64,000 bases of DNA from Promethearchaeota archaeon (GTDB lineage Archaea > Asgardarchaeota > Lokiarchaeia > Sigyniarchaeales > SOKP01), in the NCBI GenBank assembly GCA_011364975.1, contig RDOE01000002.1:9793-73792 (forward strand), written 5' to 3'. The position numbers were made by a program, and so were the translations under genes. This document shows, one piece after another, positions 26,007 to 33,880 of the stretch; within the stretch, counting starts at the first letter, position 1; each line of letters opens with the position of its first letter. A model generated the notes under the pieces. That model was not told the DNA's origin and did no database searches. It worked only from the letters and a program-made list of their open reading frames with translations.

Positions 26007-27110
26007 TTAATAATTTGAAGGAGTCTTTGTTTTAATTTTATATTTTGGGATTTCTCTTACTTTTCTTAATTCTCTTTCAAAATCCTTCTTTTCTTGTAAA
26101 AATCTCTCTTTGTCTCGATCTAATTTCTCTCTTTCTCGTTTAATTATATTTTTTTCACTTTCAATTCGAGATTTTTCATTTTCTAATCGCTTAAATTGAT
26201 TATTTAATTCTTTTAATTTATTTTCTGAATTACGAATTTTATGTTCTAATGAAAAGTAAGTATCTTCAGCTTTAGGAACCTTGTAATTTAATTCCTTTAA
26301 TTTTGCTTCTTGTTCTTTTCTCTTTCTTTCGAGGTTCTTTAATTCATCTTCTAGCTTGTCTTTAAATTTCTCTAATTCCGTTTTTTTCTTTTCTACTTCT
26401 CGGTTTTTAAGGTTTAAGTCTTTCTTTTTATATTTTACTCCTCGCTTTTCTTCTTGTAATTTTCTTTTCTCATCTTCAATTCGATTTCTTTCATCAATAA
26501 TTTCTCTTTTCAAATCATTAATCTCTTTGTCTAAATTGTCTCTTTCTCTAGTTAGACTTTTTATTTCATTTCTTAACCGCATTAAATCGTTTTCTAGCTT
26601 TTCAATAGTTCGTTCTAATGCTTCCTCTCGTCTCTCCATTCCAGGTATTTTAGTTTTAATTTCCTTTATACGGTTTTGTGCTCCTTCTTTTTCTCTTTCT
26701 AATAGTCTTTTTTCCTCGGTTAAGTTTTCTTTTAATCGCTCTAATTGTTCTTGATATGCTCTTAAGTCTGACTTTTTTTGATTTAACTCTCTTTCTTTTT
26801 GATCAATCTTATTTCTACTCTCATATATTACATTTTTCATCGCATCCATTTCTTGCTTTAACTTCTCGCGCTGATCGAGTAGATCTCTGACTTCAAGTTC
26901 TTTTTCTTTTCTTTTATGTTCTAAATTTTTAATGTTTACTTGATAGTCTTCAAATTTCTTTATAACTCTTTCCCATTCGGTTTTTTCTCTGTTTAATTTA
27001 ATTCTTTCTTCCTTAATTTTTTTCAATAATTTCGAATCTGGAATGCTTTCTATACTTTCTTCCGGTGTTTTCTCTCGAATTTGAAACTTTGGAATATTAT
27101 TATCAGTCAT
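26007..27110 (-). CDS. long coiled-coil protein
   Basis: About 320 aa of E/K/R-rich heptads with no globular or ATPase motif. Confidence 0.85.
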   Translation of the reverse strand: MTDNNIPKFQIREKTPEESIESIPDSKLLKKIKEERIKLNREKTEWERVIKKFEDYQVNIKNLEHKRKEKELEVRDLLDQREKLKQEMDAMKNVIYESRNKIDQKERELNQKKSDLRAYQEQLERLKENLTEEKRLLEREKEGAQNRIKEIKTKIPGMERREEALERTIEKLENDLMRLRNEIKSLTRERDNLDKEINDLKREIIDERNRIEDEKRKLQEEKRGVKYKKKDLNLKNREVEKKKTELEKFKDKLEDELKNLERKRKEQEAKLKELNYKVPKAEDTYFSLEHKIRNSENKLKELNNQFKRLENEKSRIESEKNIIKREREKLDRDKERFLQEKKDFERELRKVREIPKYKIKTKTPSNY

Positions 27111-27285: not shown

Positions 27286-27708
27286 ATGGAATTTGATGAG
27301 GAGTTTGATGAAGAGTTTGATGAAGAGTTTGATGAGGAGTTTGATGAGGATTTAGATGAAGATCTAGATGAGCAATCATCAGAACCTCCTGGAAAAATTC
27401 CAGATGATGATGTTAAAACCAAAACCCCTGAACCTAAAGTAATTCAGGAAGGGAAAAAGATTTCAGTCTACTTCATGTCAACTATAGGTCCAGGTGAAAA
27501 AAAGCAAAAACTGTTAATTAACACGGGAAATAAGGTTGGTGATGTAAAAGAAACCGCTGCAAATTTGTTTGGTTTAGATCCTGCTGACTTTCATTTATCC
27601 TCGAGTGGGGTTACGATGGATGAAAATTCAAGCTTAAACGATTATAATATAGCTGATGGAGATGATATTCTTTTGATTCCGGCAAGCACCGCGGGATTAA
27701 AATGTTAA
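27286..27708 (+). CDS. ubiquitin-like (UFM1-like) modifier 1 with an acidic N-terminal extension
   Basis: Beta-grasp signature G..MD....L.DYNI.DGD.ILLIP. Ends PASTAG-LKC. Confidence 0.85.
   Translation: MEFDEEFDEEFDEEFDEEFDEDLDEDLDEQSSEPPGKIPDDDVKTKTPEPKVIQEGKKISVYFMSTIGPGEKKQKLLINTGNKVGDVKETAANLFGLDPADFHLSSSGVTMDENSSLNDYNIADGDDILLIPASTAGLKC
27289..27372 (+). repeat. 7 x 12-bp tandem repeat encoding (E/D)(F/L)DE
   Basis: GARTTTGATGAR x5 followed by GATYTAGATGAR x2. Confidence 0.9.
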
Positions 27709-27725
27709 TTAAATTTATAAAATAA

Positions 27726-28547
27726 TTAGCTTTTTCCATTAATTTTTTTTCTGGTAGGAATTAGAGCTAATTCATCATCATCTTCAATATTGTAGTCAAT
27801 AATTTTTAAATCATCATCTAACAAGATTCCTCCAGAGGAAATTAGAAAACCATCTGGATTATAATCAAATAAAACACCTATTTTCTGTTTGATTATATTT
27901 ATCAATTCCGATGTATCAATTATCATTATTTTCGTTTTCTCACCAGGTTCAATTAATGATCGAACATAAACACGTATTTTCTCATCAATTTCAACAATTC
28001 TTTTTGGTGGGGTATAATTTATAGGATCGTCTGTGACACTTCTGTTTTTTATCATAGTTTCAATTAGTTGAATTCTCTCATCAGGATCGAAGTATAATAA
28101 TTCTCTAATGAAAAAAATTTTATCCATTTTTGAAAGTCCCAATAGGTTTATTTTCTCTAAATCTTCTTTTTTAAATACAGAAAAGATATAGTCATTAATT
28201 TTTGGAATATCTTCAAATGATTCATTTGAATCAGCATAACTATCAATTAAAGGATTTGCCTCAAAGTAGTCTTCAATAAATTGATTAGCTAGATTTTTTA
28301 ATGATTTCTTTTGAGGTTGATATTTTTGTTGAGGTAGCGCTTTTTTCTTTCCTAAAAACTTATATGAGCTCTCTTTTGACTGAATAATGGTATAAGCAGT
28401 ACTAGTAGATAATACAGCTACACTACTAATAGTTAAAAAGAGATATAAAGGAATACTCTCTACCCTCGAAAGGAACAATATTATATAAATACAAGTTACA
28501 ACAATGTAGAGAGTTATTAAACCAAATGCTCTATTTTTATTTCTCAT
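27726..28547 (-). CDS. membrane-anchored protein with a C-terminal UFM1-like domain (no terminal Gly motif)
   Basis: Two N-terminal hydrophobic helices. The C-terminal domain VYVRSLIEPGEK...SSGG..LD.....DYNIEDDDELALIP is a paralog of both modifiers. Confidence 0.82.
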   Translation of the reverse strand: MRNKNRAFGLITLYIVVTCIYIILFLSRVESIPLYLFLTISSVAVLSTSTAYTIIQSKESSYKFLGKKKALPQQKYQPQKKSLKNLANQFIEDYFEANPLIDSYADSNESFEDIPKINDYIFSVFKKEDLEKINLLGLSKMDKIFFIRELLYFDPDERIQLIETMIKNRSVTDDPINYTPPKRIVEIDEKIRVYVRSLIEPGEKTKIMIIDTSELINIIKQKIGVLFDYNPDGFLISSGGILLDDDLKIIDYNIEDDDELALIPTRKKINGKS

Positions 28548-28628: not shown

Positions 28629-29300
28629 CTACTCACCCACAATAGAGTTCATTATTTTTGTATATTTCTCAGTATCTAATCTAAATAATATTCTTTTATT
28701 ATCTTTTTCAACCTTTATAATCCTTAATTTATGAAGAATTTTAAGATACTTTTTAATTGTATTGTAATTCTTCTTTAAATTCTTCGCTAATTGGGTAGCT
28801 TTTAAGCTATTTTCTTCTTTTAACATAAATTCGATTATTTCTTGGATAATTACTTGTTTTAAATAATAAGATAACTCGTCGTATTCGGGATTTGACTCAT
28901 AGTGAAAGATTATTCTTTGATTATCAATTTTTTTTGATCTAGTAAATCCAAATTTTTCTAAGCAAGATAAATGCCATAATACTTGATTGCTACCAATATT
29001 TATCGCTTTCATAATTTCATTGATATTGGCAGGTTGTTTCTTGATATAATTATAAATTTCATTTCTGATTGGATGTTCGATAATATTATTTTTCATTAAT
29101 TTAGTTCCTGGTATTAGGATTCTTTTTTTAATTAGTTTTTTTATAATTTTTTCAATACTATTTTTATTCAAATTTGGGTTAAATTTCACCCTATTATTTA
29201 TATAAACAACAATATCCTCAATTGAAAAAAATGGCTTCTTTTTTAAATACTCCTTTATTAGATCACAAACAATAGCTTGAAGGGTATCAGAAGAGCTCAT
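28629..29300 (-). CDS. tandem winged-HTH transcriptional regulator (ArsR-like)
   Basis: RNEIYNYI...NQVLWHLSCLEKFG and TQLAKNLKKNYNTIKKYLKIL. Confidence 0.8.
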   Translation of the reverse strand: MSSSDTLQAIVCDLIKEYLKKKPFFSIEDIVVYINNRVKFNPNLNKNSIEKIIKKLIKKRILIPGTKLMKNNIIEHPIRNEIYNYIKKQPANINEIMKAINIGSNQVLWHLSCLEKFGFTRSKKIDNQRIIFHYESNPEYDELSYYLKQVIIQEIIEFMLKEENSLKATQLAKNLKKNYNTIKKYLKILHKLRIIKVEKDNKRILFRLDTEKYTKIMNSIVGE

Positions 29301-29565
29301 AAACTTTAATTTTTTTTTGTTAAAATACCTTGATTTTTAAACTAAATCTTCTTTCTAAACAGTATTTCCAATAATTATATATTAATAAGCCTACACTCAA
29401 TTTATAAATATATTTTCCTAAGAATGCTTTTGAAACTTTAGTACTTATTTGAGAAATTTTTAATATTTCAAATTCATTCCAAATGGTTTTTTAATATCAG
29501 ATTTGCGTGTTATTATTAAAAAATAAAATAAAATTAATATTTAAAAATATAAGAATGTGATTTGA

Positions 29566-29898
29566 ATGAGTTTTGACAACGATTTTGATGAAGAATTAGA
29601 GCCTGTTAAATCTAAAACTCCATCAAGTAAAACACCCACAACAGGTAAAAAGTTGACTTTATACTTTATGTCAACTATTGGTCCTGGTGAAAAGAAAGAG
29701 AAATTAACAGTGAATGACGCTAACCGTGTAAGTGATATCAAACAAACATTAGGAAATTTATTTGGACTCGATCCTGATGAATTTCACCTTTCATCTGGTG
29801 GAGTAACTATGGATGAAAGTAATCAACTAAAAGATTATAATGTTAATGATGGCGATGATATCCTTCTGATCCCAGCGAGTACTGCGGGATACTTTTAA
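29566..29898 (+). CDS. ubiquitin-like (UFM1-like) modifier 2
   Basis: Close paralog of 27286..27708. Ends PASTAG-YF and lies directly upstream of the E1. Confidence 0.87.
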   Translation: MSFDNDFDEELEPVKSKTPSSKTPTTGKKLTLYFMSTIGPGEKKEKLTVNDANRVSDIKQTLGNLFGLDPDEFHLSSGGVTMDESNQLKDYNVNDGDDILLIPASTAGYF

Positions 29899-29973: not shown

Positions 29974-31206
29974 GTGATAATATTGGATAAGGATTCAGAT
30001 TTTTTTGCAAAAGGAATGTCAGCGGAAGAGAGAGATCTGTATGATCGCCAATTTCGTTTAGAAGGATGGTCTCAGAAATTGGTAAAAAACTCGAGAGTCT
30101 TAATAGCAGGTGTTGGTGGATTAGGTTGTGAAATTGCAAAAAATCTAGCGATGTTAGGAGTAGGTCATTTAGATCTTGTTGATTTAGACATTATTGAGCA
30201 TTCTAATTTAAATCGTCAAATTTTATTTACAGGCGCTAAGTTAGGGGCACCAAAAGCAATTGTCGCGGCTCAAAAATTAACCGAGATTAATCCAAATATT
30301 GTTGTGAAAGGATATCATTCTTCTTTAGAACGGTTAGACCCTGCTTTATACTATGCTGCTGATGTTATTATTGGAGGCCTTGATTCAATGAATGCCCGCT
30401 TGAATTTAAATGCTCAGTGTATACGCTTTAGAAAGCCGTTTGTAGATGGTGGAGTATCTGGTTATCATGGGCATATGTATTCGATCTTTCCTTATCAAAA
30501 TGCTTGTTATGAATGTAATCCACTTCCAGTATCGGAAAGTGATGAAATGGCGGCCTGTACTGTAGTAGGGGTTCCTCGAAAACGTATTCATTGTCTTTTT
30601 AAAGGAGATATGGCCTTTAAAGAAAAATTTGATAGAGATCCAAATCCAAAAAATATAACAGATATTGAATTTATTCAAAAAGTTGCAAATGAATTAGTAA
30701 ATAAACATAATTTCTTACCAGAATATACAATAGATGATATTGTTAAAATCATTAATCGCCACGATCCTGGGATCATCACGATTAATGCGGTAATATCTGC
30801 TTTAGAATCTCATGAGGCTGTTAAAATATTGCATTGGAAAAAAGGTCATAAGGGTTTAGGACACCCTATTGCGAGTTATGTAATATTTAATGCAATGACA
30901 ATGAAACTTTATCACATAGAAAAGAAGAGAAATCCAGAATGTTCTCAATGTGGTAAAAATACAAGGCGTGTGGTCATAAAGATGAGAGCTCAATCACCAT
31001 GTTTGAATATAATTCGAACATTAAAAAAGAATGGGTTTGAATTAGAGCCTGAATTTGAACCAGTTCTAACCCTGCAAGATTATAATGATATCTTGGTTTT
31101 AGATTTAGAGCAGAGTTTGATTGAGAATGGTTTGAGGAATTACGAATTTTTAACTGTTGCAGGGTTTAAGGGTGGAGAAATTTATGTTACCTTAAAATTA
31201 ATTTAA
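29974..31206 (+). CDS. ubiquitin-activating enzyme E1 (UBA3/UBA2-like)
   Basis: YDRQ, GVGGLG, D.D.IE.SNLNRQ, CYEC, catalytic ACTVVGVPRKRIHC, CSQC and a C-terminal UFD-like domain. Probable start is the TTG at 29983 after GGTGA. Confidence 0.93.
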   Translation: MIILDKDSDFFAKGMSAEERDLYDRQFRLEGWSQKLVKNSRVLIAGVGGLGCEIAKNLAMLGVGHLDLVDLDIIEHSNLNRQILFTGAKLGAPKAIVAAQKLTEINPNIVVKGYHSSLERLDPALYYAADVIIGGLDSMNARLNLNAQCIRFRKPFVDGGVSGYHGHMYSIFPYQNACYECNPLPVSESDEMAACTVVGVPRKRIHCLFKGDMAFKEKFDRDPNPKNITDIEFIQKVANELVNKHNFLPEYTIDDIVKIINRHDPGIITINAVISALESHEAVKILHWKKGHKGLGHPIASYVIFNAMTMKLYHIEKKRNPECSQCGKNTRRVVIKMRAQSPCLNIIRTLKKNGFELEPEFEPVLTLQDYNDILVLDLEQSLIENGLRNYEFLTVAGFKGGEIYVTLKLI

Positions 31207-31298: not shown

Positions 31299-31826
31299 AT
31301 GAGTATAAGAAGTAGTCGGATTTCTCAAGATTTTGCAGGATTAAAAAAGTTACTCAAGGATGGTACTATTATTCAATTAAAACCTTTTAATCCAAAAAAG
31401 AAAAGCATTGATCATTTAGCAATTACGCTCAAAGGACCTAAAAATACAGCATATGCAGGAGGCTTGTTTAAATTGGAGATGAGTTTCCCTGCTCAATATC
31501 CTAAGCAACCACCATTTGTAAGAATGCACACTCCGATATGGCATCCAAATTTTTGGCCAAAACCAAATGAATATAAGGGACAGAGAAATATTTGTTTAGC
31601 ATTAGTGGATCCTTCTTTAGCAGGTAAAAAAGGAGGATGGAGTCCTTCAAAAACTGCTGTCACCATTGTTCAAGCCATAATTGCTATGTTAAATACCAGT
31701 GGTAAATATGTAAATCCTACTGATGTGTTTAATAAGAAAGCTGCAATGGAAATGATGAAAGATCCAAAGTTTTTCGATAAAAAGGTTAAAAATTTAGTAA
31801 AGAAGTATGCAAAGGATAAATGGTGA
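31299..31826 (+). CDS. ubiquitin-conjugating enzyme E2 (UBC)
   Basis: GP..T.Y.GG.F, YPKQPP, HPN, catalytic ICL, WSP. Confidence 0.94.
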   Translation: MSIRSSRISQDFAGLKKLLKDGTIIQLKPFNPKKKSIDHLAITLKGPKNTAYAGGLFKLEMSFPAQYPKQPPFVRMHTPIWHPNFWPKPNEYKGQRNICLALVDPSLAGKKGGWSPSKTAVTIVQAIIAMLNTSGKYVNPTDVFNKKAAMEMMKDPKFFDKKVKNLVKKYAKDKW

Positions 31827-31832
31827 ATCTAA

Positions 31833-32654
31833 ATGAATGAAGATGATAAGATTAGTATCTCGATTAAGGAAGCAGTTAAGCAAAAAATTAAAGAGAAAAT
31901 TAAAAAAGAATTACTTGAAGAGATATATAATGAACTAAAGTTAGAAGAAGAATTAGAGGAAGAAATAACATTTGAGTTAATAGATACCAAACCGTTAGAA
32001 CACTCAGAAAGTATTAAGGAAAAACTCGAACCCATTCCTATGGTGCCAGTAAAAACTACCGCTAATAGTGATAAAATTAAAGCACAAATTGTGATAACTG
32101 TTAAAGCTGTTCTAAAGATCGCAAGTCATTCTTTAAAGTACGCTCACTCTAAAATTCCACGAGAAGATTGGGTTGAAGTGATCGGCTTGTTGGCAGGAAA
32201 ATACGATAACGCAAAGGGAGTGTTATATGTTGAAGATGCTTATCCTATGGGTCATGGCACAGCTGTCTACGCAGAGATTAATGTTGAAAGGAATCGAAAG
32301 TCTGGTCATGAACGAGCGTATGAAGAAATTATCAAAAAGGGGTTATTCATTTGTGGATGGTATCATTCTCATCCTTCCTATGGTTGTTTTATGTCTAGAG
32401 AAGATTTAGGAACTCAAGCACGGTATCAAAAGTTATGGGATAAAGCTATAGCTTTAGTTATAGATCCATATCAAATTAATGGATTATCATTAGGATTTGA
32501 AATATATCGTGCAAATTTTAAAACTAAAAAATGGTTTTCGGTACCTTTTGACATCAAGGGGTACTTAGACGTAAAAATGTTACCTGAGATATTAGACTTT
32601 ATGAATCCAATAATTGAGGGAAGAGCAGCCTATTTAGAATATGATGAAGAATAA
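31833..32654 (+). CDS. JAMM/MPN+ metallo-isopeptidase (CSN5/Rpn11-like)
   Basis: EVIGLLAG and GWYHSHPSYGCFMSREDLGTQ...ALVIDP. Confidence 0.94.
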   Translation: MNEDDKISISIKEAVKQKIKEKIKKELLEEIYNELKLEEELEEEITFELIDTKPLEHSESIKEKLEPIPMVPVKTTANSDKIKAQIVITVKAVLKIASHSLKYAHSKIPREDWVEVIGLLAGKYDNAKGVLYVEDAYPMGHGTAVYAEINVERNRKSGHERAYEEIIKKGLFICGWYHSHPSYGCFMSREDLGTQARYQKLWDKAIALVIDPYQINGLSLGFEIYRANFKTKKWFSVPFDIKGYLDVKMLPEILDFMNPIIEGRAAYLEYDEE

Positions 32655-32683: not shown

Positions 32684-33880
32684 ATGGTAAAAAAGAAGGG
32701 AATAGCAATAATATTTATTCTATTTCTCCTAATAGGACTTATCCATGGTTTAATTTCAATTTCACTAAATATTTCTTTAACCTGGATATTAATTGGATTG
32801 TGGATAATAGTTTCCTTAAAAATTATAGAAAATATAAGAAGACATCGCGAGTTTAATTCTCCTCATAATACTGCCTTTTTTGTTGTAATCCCTTTATTCA
32901 TGGGGATTTTTTATTCCATTTGGGGGTATTTTACGGGTATTTTTGGAGAAAATCTTATCGAAGGTTCGAATCTTTATTTTAGTGGTTGGAGTCTTATTTT
33001 TGGATTTCCTTATGTAACATATGGTTCCTACTCATTATATCGTTGCTTTAAGAAATATAATGTTATTTATTTTGGGGCAAAATCTATAAAAGCTAAGACT
33101 TTTGGATTTATTTTAGCTTTTGTGGTACTTAGCTTTATTATAACTTATTGGATAATATTTTATTCAATATTTGATTATTTTGAGACAATATTAATACCAC
33201 TTCATTTGTCGTTAAATCTTAATCTTTTAATATTATTTATTAGTTCTATTTTAATATTAACTATATTTGGATTTTTTGCTTCACAGAGAACCCTACCTGC
33301 ATTAACTAATGATTATATAGAACAACGAACGAGAAAAATAAATTCTTTAGCGAATGCTTCACCGTCATCTTTGCCCAGAACTCAGAGACGACAAGTAACA
33401 AATAGACACTCAATCCAAACGCCCTCCAGTAAAACTGAAACTATTGCTTCAAGAACTCGAACTAATTCATCAAGAACTACTCCAACCTCTCAAAGAAAGA
33501 CTCAAAGGACCAAGATAACTTATAAAACGAATTCAACAAGAAAAACCTCTGGAACATCACAAAATCGAGGAAAAAAAATGCGAAATTTAGATATATACAA
33601 ACCTATAGCAGCATTACTTTCACCAGAAGATTTTAAATGTATTTTCTGCTTTAAATTACCAAAACTCCCCGAAGATAGAAGTAGAGGTATCATTTTATGC
33701 CCAAATTGTAAATATCCTGCACATGCAGATGAGTTCAAAGATTGGGTAAGAACTTCGAATCTCTGTTCAAGATGCAGTACACCAATTTCCTCTAGCTTCA
33801 GAAACAATCCTAAAATTATTAGCGTAAAAAATTATATGGTAATTTATAAATACTTTTTAAACAAGAAAAATAAAAAATAG
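32684..33880 (+). CDS. multi-pass membrane protein with a C-terminal RING-variant finger (putative E3 ligase)
   Basis: About 6 TM helices, an S/T/R-rich linker, then CIFC-x16-CPNC-x4-H-x2-E-x3-W-x6-CSRC. Confidence 0.78.
   Translation: MVKKKGIAIIFILFLLIGLIHGLISISLNISLTWILIGLWIIVSLKIIENIRRHREFNSPHNTAFFVVIPLFMGIFYSIWGYFTGIFGENLIEGSNLYFSGWSLIFGFPYVTYGSYSLYRCFKKYNVIYFGAKSIKAKTFGFILAFVVLSFIITYWIIFYSIFDYFETILIPLHLSLNLNLLILFISSILILTIFGFFASQRTLPALTNDYIEQRTRKINSLANASPSSLPRTQRRQVTNRHSIQTPSSKTETIASRTRTNSSRTTPTSQRKTQRTKITYKTNSTRKTSGTSQNRGKKMRNLDIYKPIAALLSPEDFKCIFCFKLPKLPEDRSRGIILCPNCKYPAHADEFKDWVRTSNLCSRCSTPISSSFRNNPKIISVKNYMVIYKYFLNKKNKK

Follow-up and report, generated by a model that had tools for sequence, protein, structure and literature searches.

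What does a ubiquitin-like domain do in an archaeal membrane, at the end of a protein that apparently cannot be conjugated? The question is raised by a gene at positions 27726..28547 (minus strand) of a 64,000-nucleotide stretch of a Promethearchaeota genome, hereafter the window. The gene was taken from the open reading frame (ORF) list with an ATG start and encodes 273 residues plus a stop codon; we call its product TM-UBL after its transmembrane (TM) helices and its ubiquitin-like (UBL) domain. The window represents contig C128 of a 3.74-Mb genome (200 contigs, 99% complete, 6% contamination) and is AT-rich, with a GC content of 0.25-0.33. TM-UBL is a real and conserved feature and more than a product of chance, having 316 homologues at E<=1e-3, of which the 120 listed are 243-279 residues long and 54-96% identical. 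The most informative new fact is that TM-UBL is one of a family of membrane proteins that share a helical "tail" domain and are paired with winged helix-turn-helix (wHTH) regulators. Because tail-domain genes nearly always adjoin a wHTH paralogue on the same strand, we propose, with a probability of roughly 45%, that TM-UBL is the ubiquitin-linked member of a "membrane protein plus wHTH regulator" cassette family.

A transmembrane hairpin and a conserved tail domain

The N-terminal part of TM-UBL holds two hydrophobic segments. TM helix 1 (28467..28526, minus strand; residues 8-27) has a mean Kyte-Doolittle hydropathy of 2.57 over 70 orthologues and may serve as a signal anchor. TM helix 2 (28383..28448, minus strand; residues 34-55) has many small residues and is strongly conserved (I40, S42, V43, A44, V45, L46, S47, T50 and Y52). 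In 19-residue windows, hydropathy peaks at 2.62 over residues 8-26 and at 1.4-1.6 over residues 29-55. The N-terminus before the first helix reads MRNKNRA, and among the 70 orthologues the median number of Lys plus Arg is 3 in the N-terminus, 0 in the six-residue loop between the helices and 8 after the second helix. Because of this distribution and the positive-inside rule, TM-UBL is predicted to form a TM hairpin with both termini in the cytoplasm (N-in/C-in), which places its C-terminal part on the cytoplasmic side; that part would still be cytoplasmic if the first helix were a cleaved signal peptide. Topology prediction by hydropathy and charge counts agrees in this respect with the original prediction, which described an integral-membrane protein with two N-terminal TM helices. 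A Lys-rich juxtamembrane stretch follows the hairpin (28293..28382, minus strand; residues 56-85); it carries nine Lys or Arg against three Asp or Glu and is predicted to be disordered, with a predicted local distance difference test (pLDDT) of 25-36.

The segment after it had been taken for a helical linker. It proved to be a separate conserved domain, the tail domain (28038..28286, minus strand; residues ~88-170, as delimited by alignments and the domain model), and it is shared with the tails of surface proteins. Its conservation is on par with that of the UBL domain, and 15 positions are invariant in 46 sequences: Y94, P99, Y104, F122, F125, L136, K140, D142, I144, R148, E149, Y152, E157, R158 and I162. 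Folded alone, it was modelled as five helices with a pLDDT of 73.6. A wide VIA structure search with this domain gave a best Z of 4.4 and nothing at or above 5, Foldseek found nothing in the PDB at E<=0.001, and the best PDB match by sequence profile had an E value of 0.29. Pfam and NCBIfam gave no significant match to TM-UBL outside its UBL domain, the tail domain included; a search of the ESM Atlas with the tail domain returned no usable match, and a word-based search retrieved no longer relatives of it.

A profile of TM-UBL without its UBL domain (residues 1-186) led to the surface proteins. Across the phylum, 113 of 400 genomes have a match to it, as do 107 of the 134 in the window's family, and positions 33-170 of the profile, which span TM helix 2, the Lys-rich stretch and the tail domain, match the C-termini of ORFs of 450-1500 residues. 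TM helix 2 aligns with the single TM helix of these proteins (positions 33-55), and in the eight examples compared with the profile the TM-plus-tail module was recognised at E values of 3e-26 to 1e-11. Their layout is a large ectodomain, a single TM helix with many small residues, a basic segment and, at the extreme C-terminus, the tail domain; a signal-like start is seen in those with the N-terminus present. The ectodomains of the eight are WD40/PQQ propellers or Beta_helix/NosD repeats. In a profile search of 1.84 billion representative proteins the tail domain occurs in just 71 clusters, mostly at the extreme C-terminus. When 39 cluster representatives were scanned, 24 carried Beta_helix/NosD, WD40/PQQ, FG-GAP, Laminin_G_3, TSP3 or Big_7 families (one had DUF6772 alone) and 15 had no Pfam family at all.

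Many tail domains are preceded by a RING-like C4C4 finger, C-x2-[CH]-x10-11-C-x2-C-x4-C-x2-C-x10-C-x2-C, which lies ~20-60 residues before the tail domain in 22 of 70 stored representatives and in two of eight fetched loci. Pfam gave B-box, RING and zinc-ribbon hints for this finger, all sub-threshold, and its comparison with the finger of a membrane protein encoded in the neighbouring operon (below) reached an hhalign probability of 34%, at which homology is not claimed. Two small proteins, P0145 and P0161, consist of a TM hairpin, the finger and the tail domain, and are architectural twins of TM-UBL in which the finger takes the place of the UBL domain. The C-terminal half of the tail domain occurs as a tandem duplicate in P0139 and P0174 (F-L-x-K-V-D-x-L-G...E-K-K-x-F-L-x-E-M-L-x-L-S-P-K-E-R-E-E-I); because of these two copies, this half may be the functional unit. 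The C4C4 finger, found ahead of the tail domain in other genera, also ends four proteins of the window's genome, all without a tail domain, at E values of 1e-16 to 6e-9: C173:11401-12414 (plus strand), C161:18712-19215 (minus), C165:15233-16024 (plus) and C182:11808-13370 (minus). One of them is TPR-like; the other three have several hydrophobic stretches each and are membrane proteins.

A proposed wHTH partner and the cassette reading

The gene next to TM-UBL, 81 nucleotides upstream on the same strand (28629..29300, minus), encodes a tandem ArsR-like wHTH protein of 223 residues. Two stretches of it match PF01022 (HTH_5; 43.6 bits, cut-off 22) and correspond to two ArsR-type units, and further ArsR/SmtB-type matches are sub-threshold; the protein is, by these matches, probably DNA-binding. 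In a set of 73 TM-UBL loci from species-representative genomes, the wHTH gene is present in 72, which makes it the tightest partner gene, ahead of the E1, E2 and JAMM genes of the neighbouring ubiquitin-like operon.

The same pairing recurs at tail-domain genes without a UBL domain. The sole other tail-domain gene of the window's genome, C153:8472-9755, encodes a 428-residue type-I surface protein, whose tail domain was found at E 0.016 with the narrow profile and at 5.5e-14 with the widened one. Only 17 nucleotides downstream of it lies a wHTH paralogue of 228 residues (C153:9775-10458), which is 36% identical to the partner of TM-UBL over 206 residues (E 2e-30; hhalign 99.8%). Since four wHTH-like genes were detected in the 3.7-Mb genome, chance adjacency to both of its tail-domain genes is negligible. 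In the eight surface-protein loci fetched first, a wHTH paralogue on the same strand abuts the tail gene in six, and in the remaining two the tail ORF runs off the start of the locus. Of 20 further loci, 15 have a wHTH paralogue (E 1e-37 to 4e-79) abutting the tail gene; among the five that do not, four have a tail ORF that begins at a contig end. The order in the 15 is tail gene then wHTH gene in 13 and the reverse in two, with gaps of -56 to +185 nucleotides. An adjacent wHTH paralogue on the same strand is thus shared by nearly all TM-UBL loci, the C153 pair and most of the surface-protein loci.

Other wHTH genes of the family were seen in different settings. The paralogue at C65:51867-52595 (plus strand) is fused to two N-terminal TM helices, and the one at C157:11110-13205 (plus strand) is followed 26 nucleotides later by a 437-residue multi-pass membrane protein without a tail domain. 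At locus L035, the wHTH gene beside TM-UBL has only its last 82 residues left.

The cassette reading can be put as follows. The tail domain would work with, and probably bind, its cognate wHTH protein, as their adjacency suggests, and the two would form a membrane-protein/regulator pair with a logic like that of anti-sigma/sigma or BlaR1/BlaI cassettes. The variable part of the pair would be the ectodomain in the surface proteins, where a RING-like finger often comes directly ahead of the tail. In TM-UBL the ectodomain would be reduced to the six-residue loop and a UBL domain added, which would tie this cassette to the ubiquitin-like pathway. Because its PGEK beta1-beta2 loop and LSSGG strand are kept as in the free ubiquitin-like modifiers (Ubls), the UBL domain would probably be the site, within the membrane-bound wHTH complex, at which a protein that recognises free Ubls (E1, E2, JAMM or a reader) docks. 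One outcome could be that pathway load is reported to the regulator of the divergent Ubl-E1-E2-JAMM operon; another could be that pathway enzymes are recruited to the tethered regulator or to membrane proteins close by.

Cassettes of a membrane sensor and an adjacent regulator are familiar from bacteria, as in anti-sigma/extracytoplasmic function (ECF) sigma pairs, RsgI/SigI and BlaR1/BlaI. The proposed Lokiarchaeal cassettes resemble them in being many paralogous pairs of a single-pass membrane protein and a small DNA-binding protein, and in the membrane partner's combination of a variable ectodomain with a conserved cytoplasmic domain. They differ in that the regulator is a tandem ArsR-like wHTH protein and no sigma factor, and in that the cytoplasmic domain is new and has a RING-like finger or a UBL domain attached.

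Several points weigh against the cassette reading. Gene adjacency is by itself no proof of binding, and the wHTH protein could simply be a local transcription factor that is co-transcribed with its neighbour. Locus L108, with both flanks present, has a tail-domain gene without a wHTH gene and is a true exception. For nine pairs, the similarity matrix of the wHTH proteins and that of the tail domains show like groupings, but a Mantel test gives no significant correlation (r 0.41, reached in 622 of 10,000 permutations); when genus g11 is left out, r falls to 0.33, which 1220 of 10,000 permutations reach. The fold of the tail domain is modelled with moderate confidence (pLDDT 73.6). Eight of the 12 genera of the family in which E1 was found (g3, g4, g6, g7, g8, g9, g10 and g13) yielded no full-length TM-UBL, and the Ubl pathway therefore works without it there. 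Finally, a strict operator pattern, GGAAT-N2-4-ATTT-N0-1-GAA, was found in only seven of 68 loci at each of two places.

The divergent intergenic region between the wHTH gene and the operon (29301..29565) is a candidate control region with a conserved ~30-nucleotide block around CCATTTGGAATGAATTTGAAAT and TATA-like blocks (66 loci). The strict pattern was derived from its own two sites in the window, and seven of 100 shuffles give at least two matches, so that it is at present a lead only. A sigma-70 promoter scan gave 19 sites against 17 expected, with a bacterial consensus that is inapplicable to an archaeon.

A ubiquitin fold with a different ending

The C-terminal domain of TM-UBL (27756..27980, minus strand; residues 190-264, delimited by PF00240, structure prediction and Foldseek) is a member of the ubiquitin family. 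Pfam PF00240 matches residues 195-262 with 26.8 bits, above the family cut-off of 25.4. A full-length AlphaFold2 model, for which 46 sequences were used, averages a pLDDT of only 61; within it, the UBL domain (residues 191-270) has block values of 67-91, with seven of eight blocks at or above 78. Strands at 190-197, 204-211, 234-238 and 258-264 and a helix at 216-227 give the order beta-beta-alpha-beta-beta that the fold requires. Foldseek against the PDB retrieved chains of ubiquitin, ISG15 and NEDD8, the first being Caldiarchaeum ubiquitin (6fno_D), and single-domain ubiquitin-fold chains aligned with a target-normalised TM-score of 0.78-0.92 and a root-mean-square deviation of 1.1-2.0 A over 75-80 columns. 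Model and structure search thus concur that the domain has a beta-grasp fold, as had been proposed.

The window holds two free Ubl genes that flank TM-UBL and its partner. Ubl1 (27286..27708, plus strand) encodes a precursor ending ...ASTAG-LKC and is convergent with TM-UBL. Ubl2 (29566..29898, plus strand), a precursor ending ...ASTAG-YF, is divergent from the wHTH gene and is the first gene of the E1 operon. BLASTP aligns the UBL domain of TM-UBL with Ubl2 at 37% identity (E 2e-20) and with Ubl1 at 37% identity (E 5e-19), and the two free Ubls are 61% identical to each other. TM-UBL keeps the motifs PGEK (201-204), SSGG (237-240), DYNI (251-254) and LIP (262-264). Positions conserved to at least 80% both in 70 TM-UBL proteins and in 122 free Ubls are Y194, S197, PGEK, K220, L226, F234, LSSGG, Y252, D256, D258 and LIP.

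Its descent was read from a tree of 64 UBL and Ubl sequences, of which the unrooted split alone was used and the C191 row (a gene described below) disregarded. The 21 TM-UBL domains fall on one side of a long branch with support of 100/99, and all the free Ubls of genera g1/g12, g11, g6 and g13 fall on the other. The genes at the Ubl1 and Ubl2 positions form two clades, which indicates a later duplication. Because of the long branch, the UBL domain of TM-UBL appears to be a diverged paralogue. The original prediction of a third copy of the modifier fold with its motifs kept stands as to fold and motifs; the copy is not a recent one.

The ending of TM-UBL sets it apart from the free Ubls. Where AS(T)AG would be expected it has a polybasic C-terminal tail, TRKKINGKS (27729..27755, minus strand), for which the family consensus is SRKK. 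Not one of the 120 homologues listed has the AS.AG ending; 46 of them end in ...LIPSRKK and the others in variants of it. Among 132 free Ubl ORFs from the same 73 loci, LIP-AS[TIV]AG is dominant. The frame stops exactly at the Gly in 86 of these, and most others have a short variable extension after it, which would fit precursors trimmed by the JAMM protease. The conserved modifier ending being absent, TM-UBL is to all appearances non-conjugatable, and the claim that its tail replaces ASTAG with a non-conjugatable sequence is borne out across the listed homologues. Conjugation after G271 (..ING|KS), by which targets would be tethered to the membrane, was considered and rejected as scarcely credible. 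MAFFT aligns G271 with the terminal Gly of the free Ubls, but the residue is not conserved, only one other tail among the 120 listed has a Gly near its end, and the AS(T)AG context is absent.

A tail-less UBL domain that shares conserved surfaces with the free Ubls might act as a decoy, competing with them and sequestering E1 or JAMM at the membrane. We regard this as very improbable. E1 recognition normally depends on the C-terminal tail (E1 adenylation), which is what TM-UBL lacks; many core positions of its UBL domain have diverged, and neither the conserved tail domain nor the membrane anchor is accounted for by a decoy. The cassette reading, in which the UBL domain docks a pathway component, makes use of the same conserved surfaces.

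Further features of the free Ubls were observed. The N-terminus of Ubl1 (27286-27420, plus strand) is an acidic repeat, (FDEE)n followed by DLDE, ahead of the ubiquitin fold, and Ubl2 has an acidic N-terminal extension shorter than that of Ubl1. A K-T/S-P or Y-x-P-P motif directly before strand 1 is common to both free Ubls and TM-UBL. A fourth ubiquitin-family gene, C191:52423-52614 (minus strand), is the genome's best PF00240 match (40 bits) in a frame of 85 residues; as read from DNA it ends ...TQAGGK, that is, in Gly-Gly, unlike the AS(T)AG Ubls. On the complete chromosome to which L035 belongs, a Ubl-like stretch of ~70 residues, 53% identical to Ubl1/Ubl2, lies inside a 517-residue ORF (L035:449-2002, plus strand).

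The neighbouring operon and known systems

On the plus strand, Ubl2 is followed by E1 (29974-31206; Pfam ThiF, 193 bits), E2 (31299-31826; UQ_con, 89 bits), JAMM (31833-32654; JAB, 52.3 bits) and a multi-pass membrane protein (32684-33880). The last has a C-terminal RING-like Cys/His finger, C-x2-C-x16-C-x2-C-x4-H-x12-C-x2-C, a pattern conserved in 51 orthologues, for which the Pfam matches to Zn_ribbon_15, zf-RING_16 and Prok-RING_1 are all sub-threshold. The operon E2 is far more conserved than TM-UBL, with a mean column identity of 92% (55 orthologues) against 66% (46 sequences). A coiled-coil protein (26007-27110, minus strand; 367 residues, Lys/Glu-rich) is a conserved divergent neighbour of the first Ubl gene, is also kept in genera g6, g13 and g11, and may belong to the Ubl system.

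The gene order at the 73 loci runs from the wHTH gene into TM-UBL, on which Ubl1 converges; on the far side of the wHTH gene, Ubl2, E1, E2, JAMM and the membrane finger protein follow one another in the opposite direction. Onward from Ubl1, and divergent from it, are genes for the coiled-coil protein, a nucleotidyltransferase, (TPR), PHP and FtsZ. E1 is present within 8 kb in 63 of these loci; the counts for E2, JAMM and the membrane finger protein are 58, 54 and 53. Ten loci lack E1, eight of them at contig ends (within 2.3 kb). At L035 and L064 the DNA is present but holds no E1, and L049 has an E1 fragment; E1 lies elsewhere in all three genomes. The fragment (L049:6288-6569, minus strand; residues 1-94) stands by Ubl2, with the full E1 ~100 kb off on the same chromosome (G401:C1:567061-568284), and marks a rearrangement breakpoint inside E1.

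Full-length orthologues of TM-UBL (ORFs of ~260-290 residues) occur in four genera of one Lokiarchaeal family. The profile of residues 1-186 matches in 36 of 41 genomes of g1 and in 52 of 54 of g12, and the remaining genera are g11 (four genomes) and g5 (three genomes). The E1 orthologue is more widespread: 115 of the family's 135 genomes have it, and these come from 12 of its 13 genera; in g2, neither E1 nor the TM-UBL profile has a match in the five genomes. In g6 and g13 the operon consists of the coiled-coil gene and, divergent from it, Ubl, E1, E2, JAMM and the membrane finger gene, without wHTH or TM-UBL. Genus g11 has an operon of this kind and, on a different contig, a module in which the wHTH gene, TM-UBL and a small GTPase gene lead away from a divergent Ubl gene that is followed by one for a soluble, Ser/Thr/Arg-rich RING-like protein. 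Because this module is unlinked from the E1 operon and is absent from operon-bearing genera, wHTH, TM-UBL and Ubl appear to make up a separable module, which in g1, g12 and g5 came to be placed between E1 and the first Ubl gene of the operon. The co-occurrence with the Ubl operon that had been proposed is consequently seen at most loci, with E1 near in the 63 noted above, but not in g11. The g11 GTPase gene (L092:7594-8175, minus strand), directly downstream of TM-UBL, is Rab/Arf-like, and the soluble protein after Ubl (L092:10634-11302, plus strand; 222 residues) has the same C-terminal finger as the operon membrane protein.

Public relatives are labelled as Promethearchaeota/Lokiarchaeota metagenome-assembled genomes, with a few Hod-, Hermod-, Thor- and Odinarchaeota and one bacterium, all of them unchecked submitter labels. 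The family is annotated as "hypothetical protein", "ubiquitin-like protein" or "Ubiquitin-like domain-containing protein". Sequence words of the window were found in 19 DNA runs at shares of 0.60-0.92 from six studies (estuary, marine sediment, soil and mangrove) and in one metatranscriptome run at a share of 0.06.

Membrane-anchored ubiquitin-fold proteins, namely the MUB (membrane-anchored ubiquitin-fold)/UBL3 proteins, HERP and TMUB, are regarded as eukaryotic devices. HERP/Usa1 and TMUB1/2 have both a cytoplasmic UBL domain and a TM hairpin, and they act close to a RING ligase that spans the membrane several times; in the case of HERP/Usa1, a Hrd1-type ligase is bound. TM-UBL shares this combination of hairpin and cytoplasmic UBL domain, so that the analogy to HERP and TMUB drawn in the original prediction is sound as to architecture. 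It fails as to domain order, since HERP/Usa1 has an N-terminal UBL domain followed by a C-terminal TM hairpin and TM-UBL has the reverse, and it gains nothing from Pfam or NCBIfam, whose matches to TM-UBL are confined to the UBL domain. MUB/UBL3 offers a second comparison. Passages of PMC9001657 describe UBL3 as prenyl-anchored, as binding the backside of group VI E2s and tethering them to membranes, and as required for the transmembrane RING-CH ligase MARCH1. Set beside these passages (PMC9001657), TM-UBL likewise has a non-conjugated ubiquitin fold, predicted to be held on the cytoplasmic side of a membrane; surface proteins and a putative transmembrane RING-type ligase, with a sub-threshold finger match, belong to its setting as well. 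The anchor of TM-UBL is an N-terminal TM hairpin and that of MUB/UBL3 a C-terminal prenyl group; the tail of TM-UBL contains neither Cys nor CaaX, and TM-UBL has in addition a helical domain and a paired wHTH gene. Because it is confined to four genera of one family, TM-UBL is a lineage-specific invention, an analogue of MUB/UBL3 and not the ancestor of the eukaryotic proteins.

These comparisons bear on the main competitor of the cassette reading, namely that TM-UBL is a membrane adaptor like MUB/UBL3 or HERP/Usa1, whose UBL domain tethers E2 (or E1, JAMM or an AAA ATPase) beside a RING-like protein so that membrane proteins are modified, with the wHTH protein as operon regulator only. Several observations speak for an adaptor: TM-UBL adjoins the Ubl-E1-E2-JAMM-membrane finger operon in most genomes, its UBL domain and the finger of the membrane protein are both predicted to be cytoplasmic, and the UBL domain retains surfaces that are conserved among free Ubls too. 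Its polybasic C-terminus would keep this domain at the membrane, much like the prenyl tail of MUBs, and UBL3, with its E2 tethering and its part in MARCH1 function, provides a precedent (as described in passages of PMC9001657). An adaptor, however, leaves the conserved tail domain and the recurrent wHTH pairing unexplained; the g11 module is unlinked from the operon, TM-UBL is absent from operon-bearing genera, and the RING matches of the membrane finger are sub-threshold only. We consider an adaptor of this kind somewhat unlikely, and the adaptor function originally put forward appears plausible but incomplete.

The operon itself is of the same kind as the ubiquitin operons of Caldiarchaeum subterraneum and of Asgard archaea (Ub, E1, E2, RING and Rpn11-like JAMM), and the best structural match of the TM-UBL domain, 6fno_D, is the Caldiarchaeum ubiquitin. 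Passages of PMC9192718 report a discrete Ub region in Lokiarchaeota, and Asgard Ub and ESCRT (endosomal sorting complex required for transport) gene clusters and an E1-E2-RING cascade in Helarchaeia are described in parts of PMC9192718 and 10.1101/2023.07.25.550441. The passages found in these two sources mention neither a UBL protein anchored in the membrane nor the tail domain nor its pairing with wHTH genes, although their supplements may list the gene among "ubiquitin" homologues, and literature searches returned nothing on such a TM-UBL protein, the tail domain or the cassette.

The ESCRT connection raises one more alternative, in which TM-UBL is a built-in ubiquitin signal recognised by ESCRT-I-like or ubiquitin E2 variant (UEV) readers and directs sorting or vesicle formation for itself and the surface proteins. 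The tail module common to the surface proteins fits this idea, as do two Vps28-like genes (C106, 31.6 bits; C162, 26.5 bits) and a second UBC-fold gene (C132) in the genome, and ubiquitin-UEV interactions have been reported for Lokiarchaeota (passages of PMC9192718). On the other hand, no match to Pfam's UEV family was seen in this genome, though control genomes gave none either; the Ub and ESCRT regions are separate in Lokiarchaeota (passages of PMC9192718), no ESCRT gene lies in the conserved neighbourhood of the 73 loci, and the wHTH pairing is again unexplained. A built-in signal seems quite improbable on balance. The second E2 (C132:24472-24903, minus strand) has an HPN motif and a Cys (…NICLDL…) and is far from the operon.

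The cassette reading thus returns as the one that we prefer, and it admits a bolder form. Lokiarchaeia may possess transmembrane receptor/transcription-factor cassettes with ubiquitin-system cytoplasmic domains (a RING-like finger in the surface receptors, a UBL domain in TM-UBL), in which ubiquitin-like modification or recognition would control the release, turnover or activity of tethered regulators, and in which the Ubl operon would have the TM-UBL/wHTH pair as its own autoregulatory sensor. We hold this extended form to be unlikely; if true, it would be an archaeal counterpart of the eukaryotic ubiquitin-dependent activation of membrane-bound transcription factors. What the locus provides in any case is an Asgard archaeon with a differently built membrane-anchored UBL protein beside a eukaryote-like Ubl-E1-E2-JAMM operon, and a previously undescribed cytoplasmic domain that is common to many Lokiarchaeal surface proteins, often with RING-like fingers, and is consistently paired with wHTH genes. 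These offer a testable route to the membrane targets of the Asgard ubiquitin-like system and to the coupling of surface events to gene control, and they suggest that in archaea ubiquitin-like signalling may be connected with gene control that is bound to the membrane.

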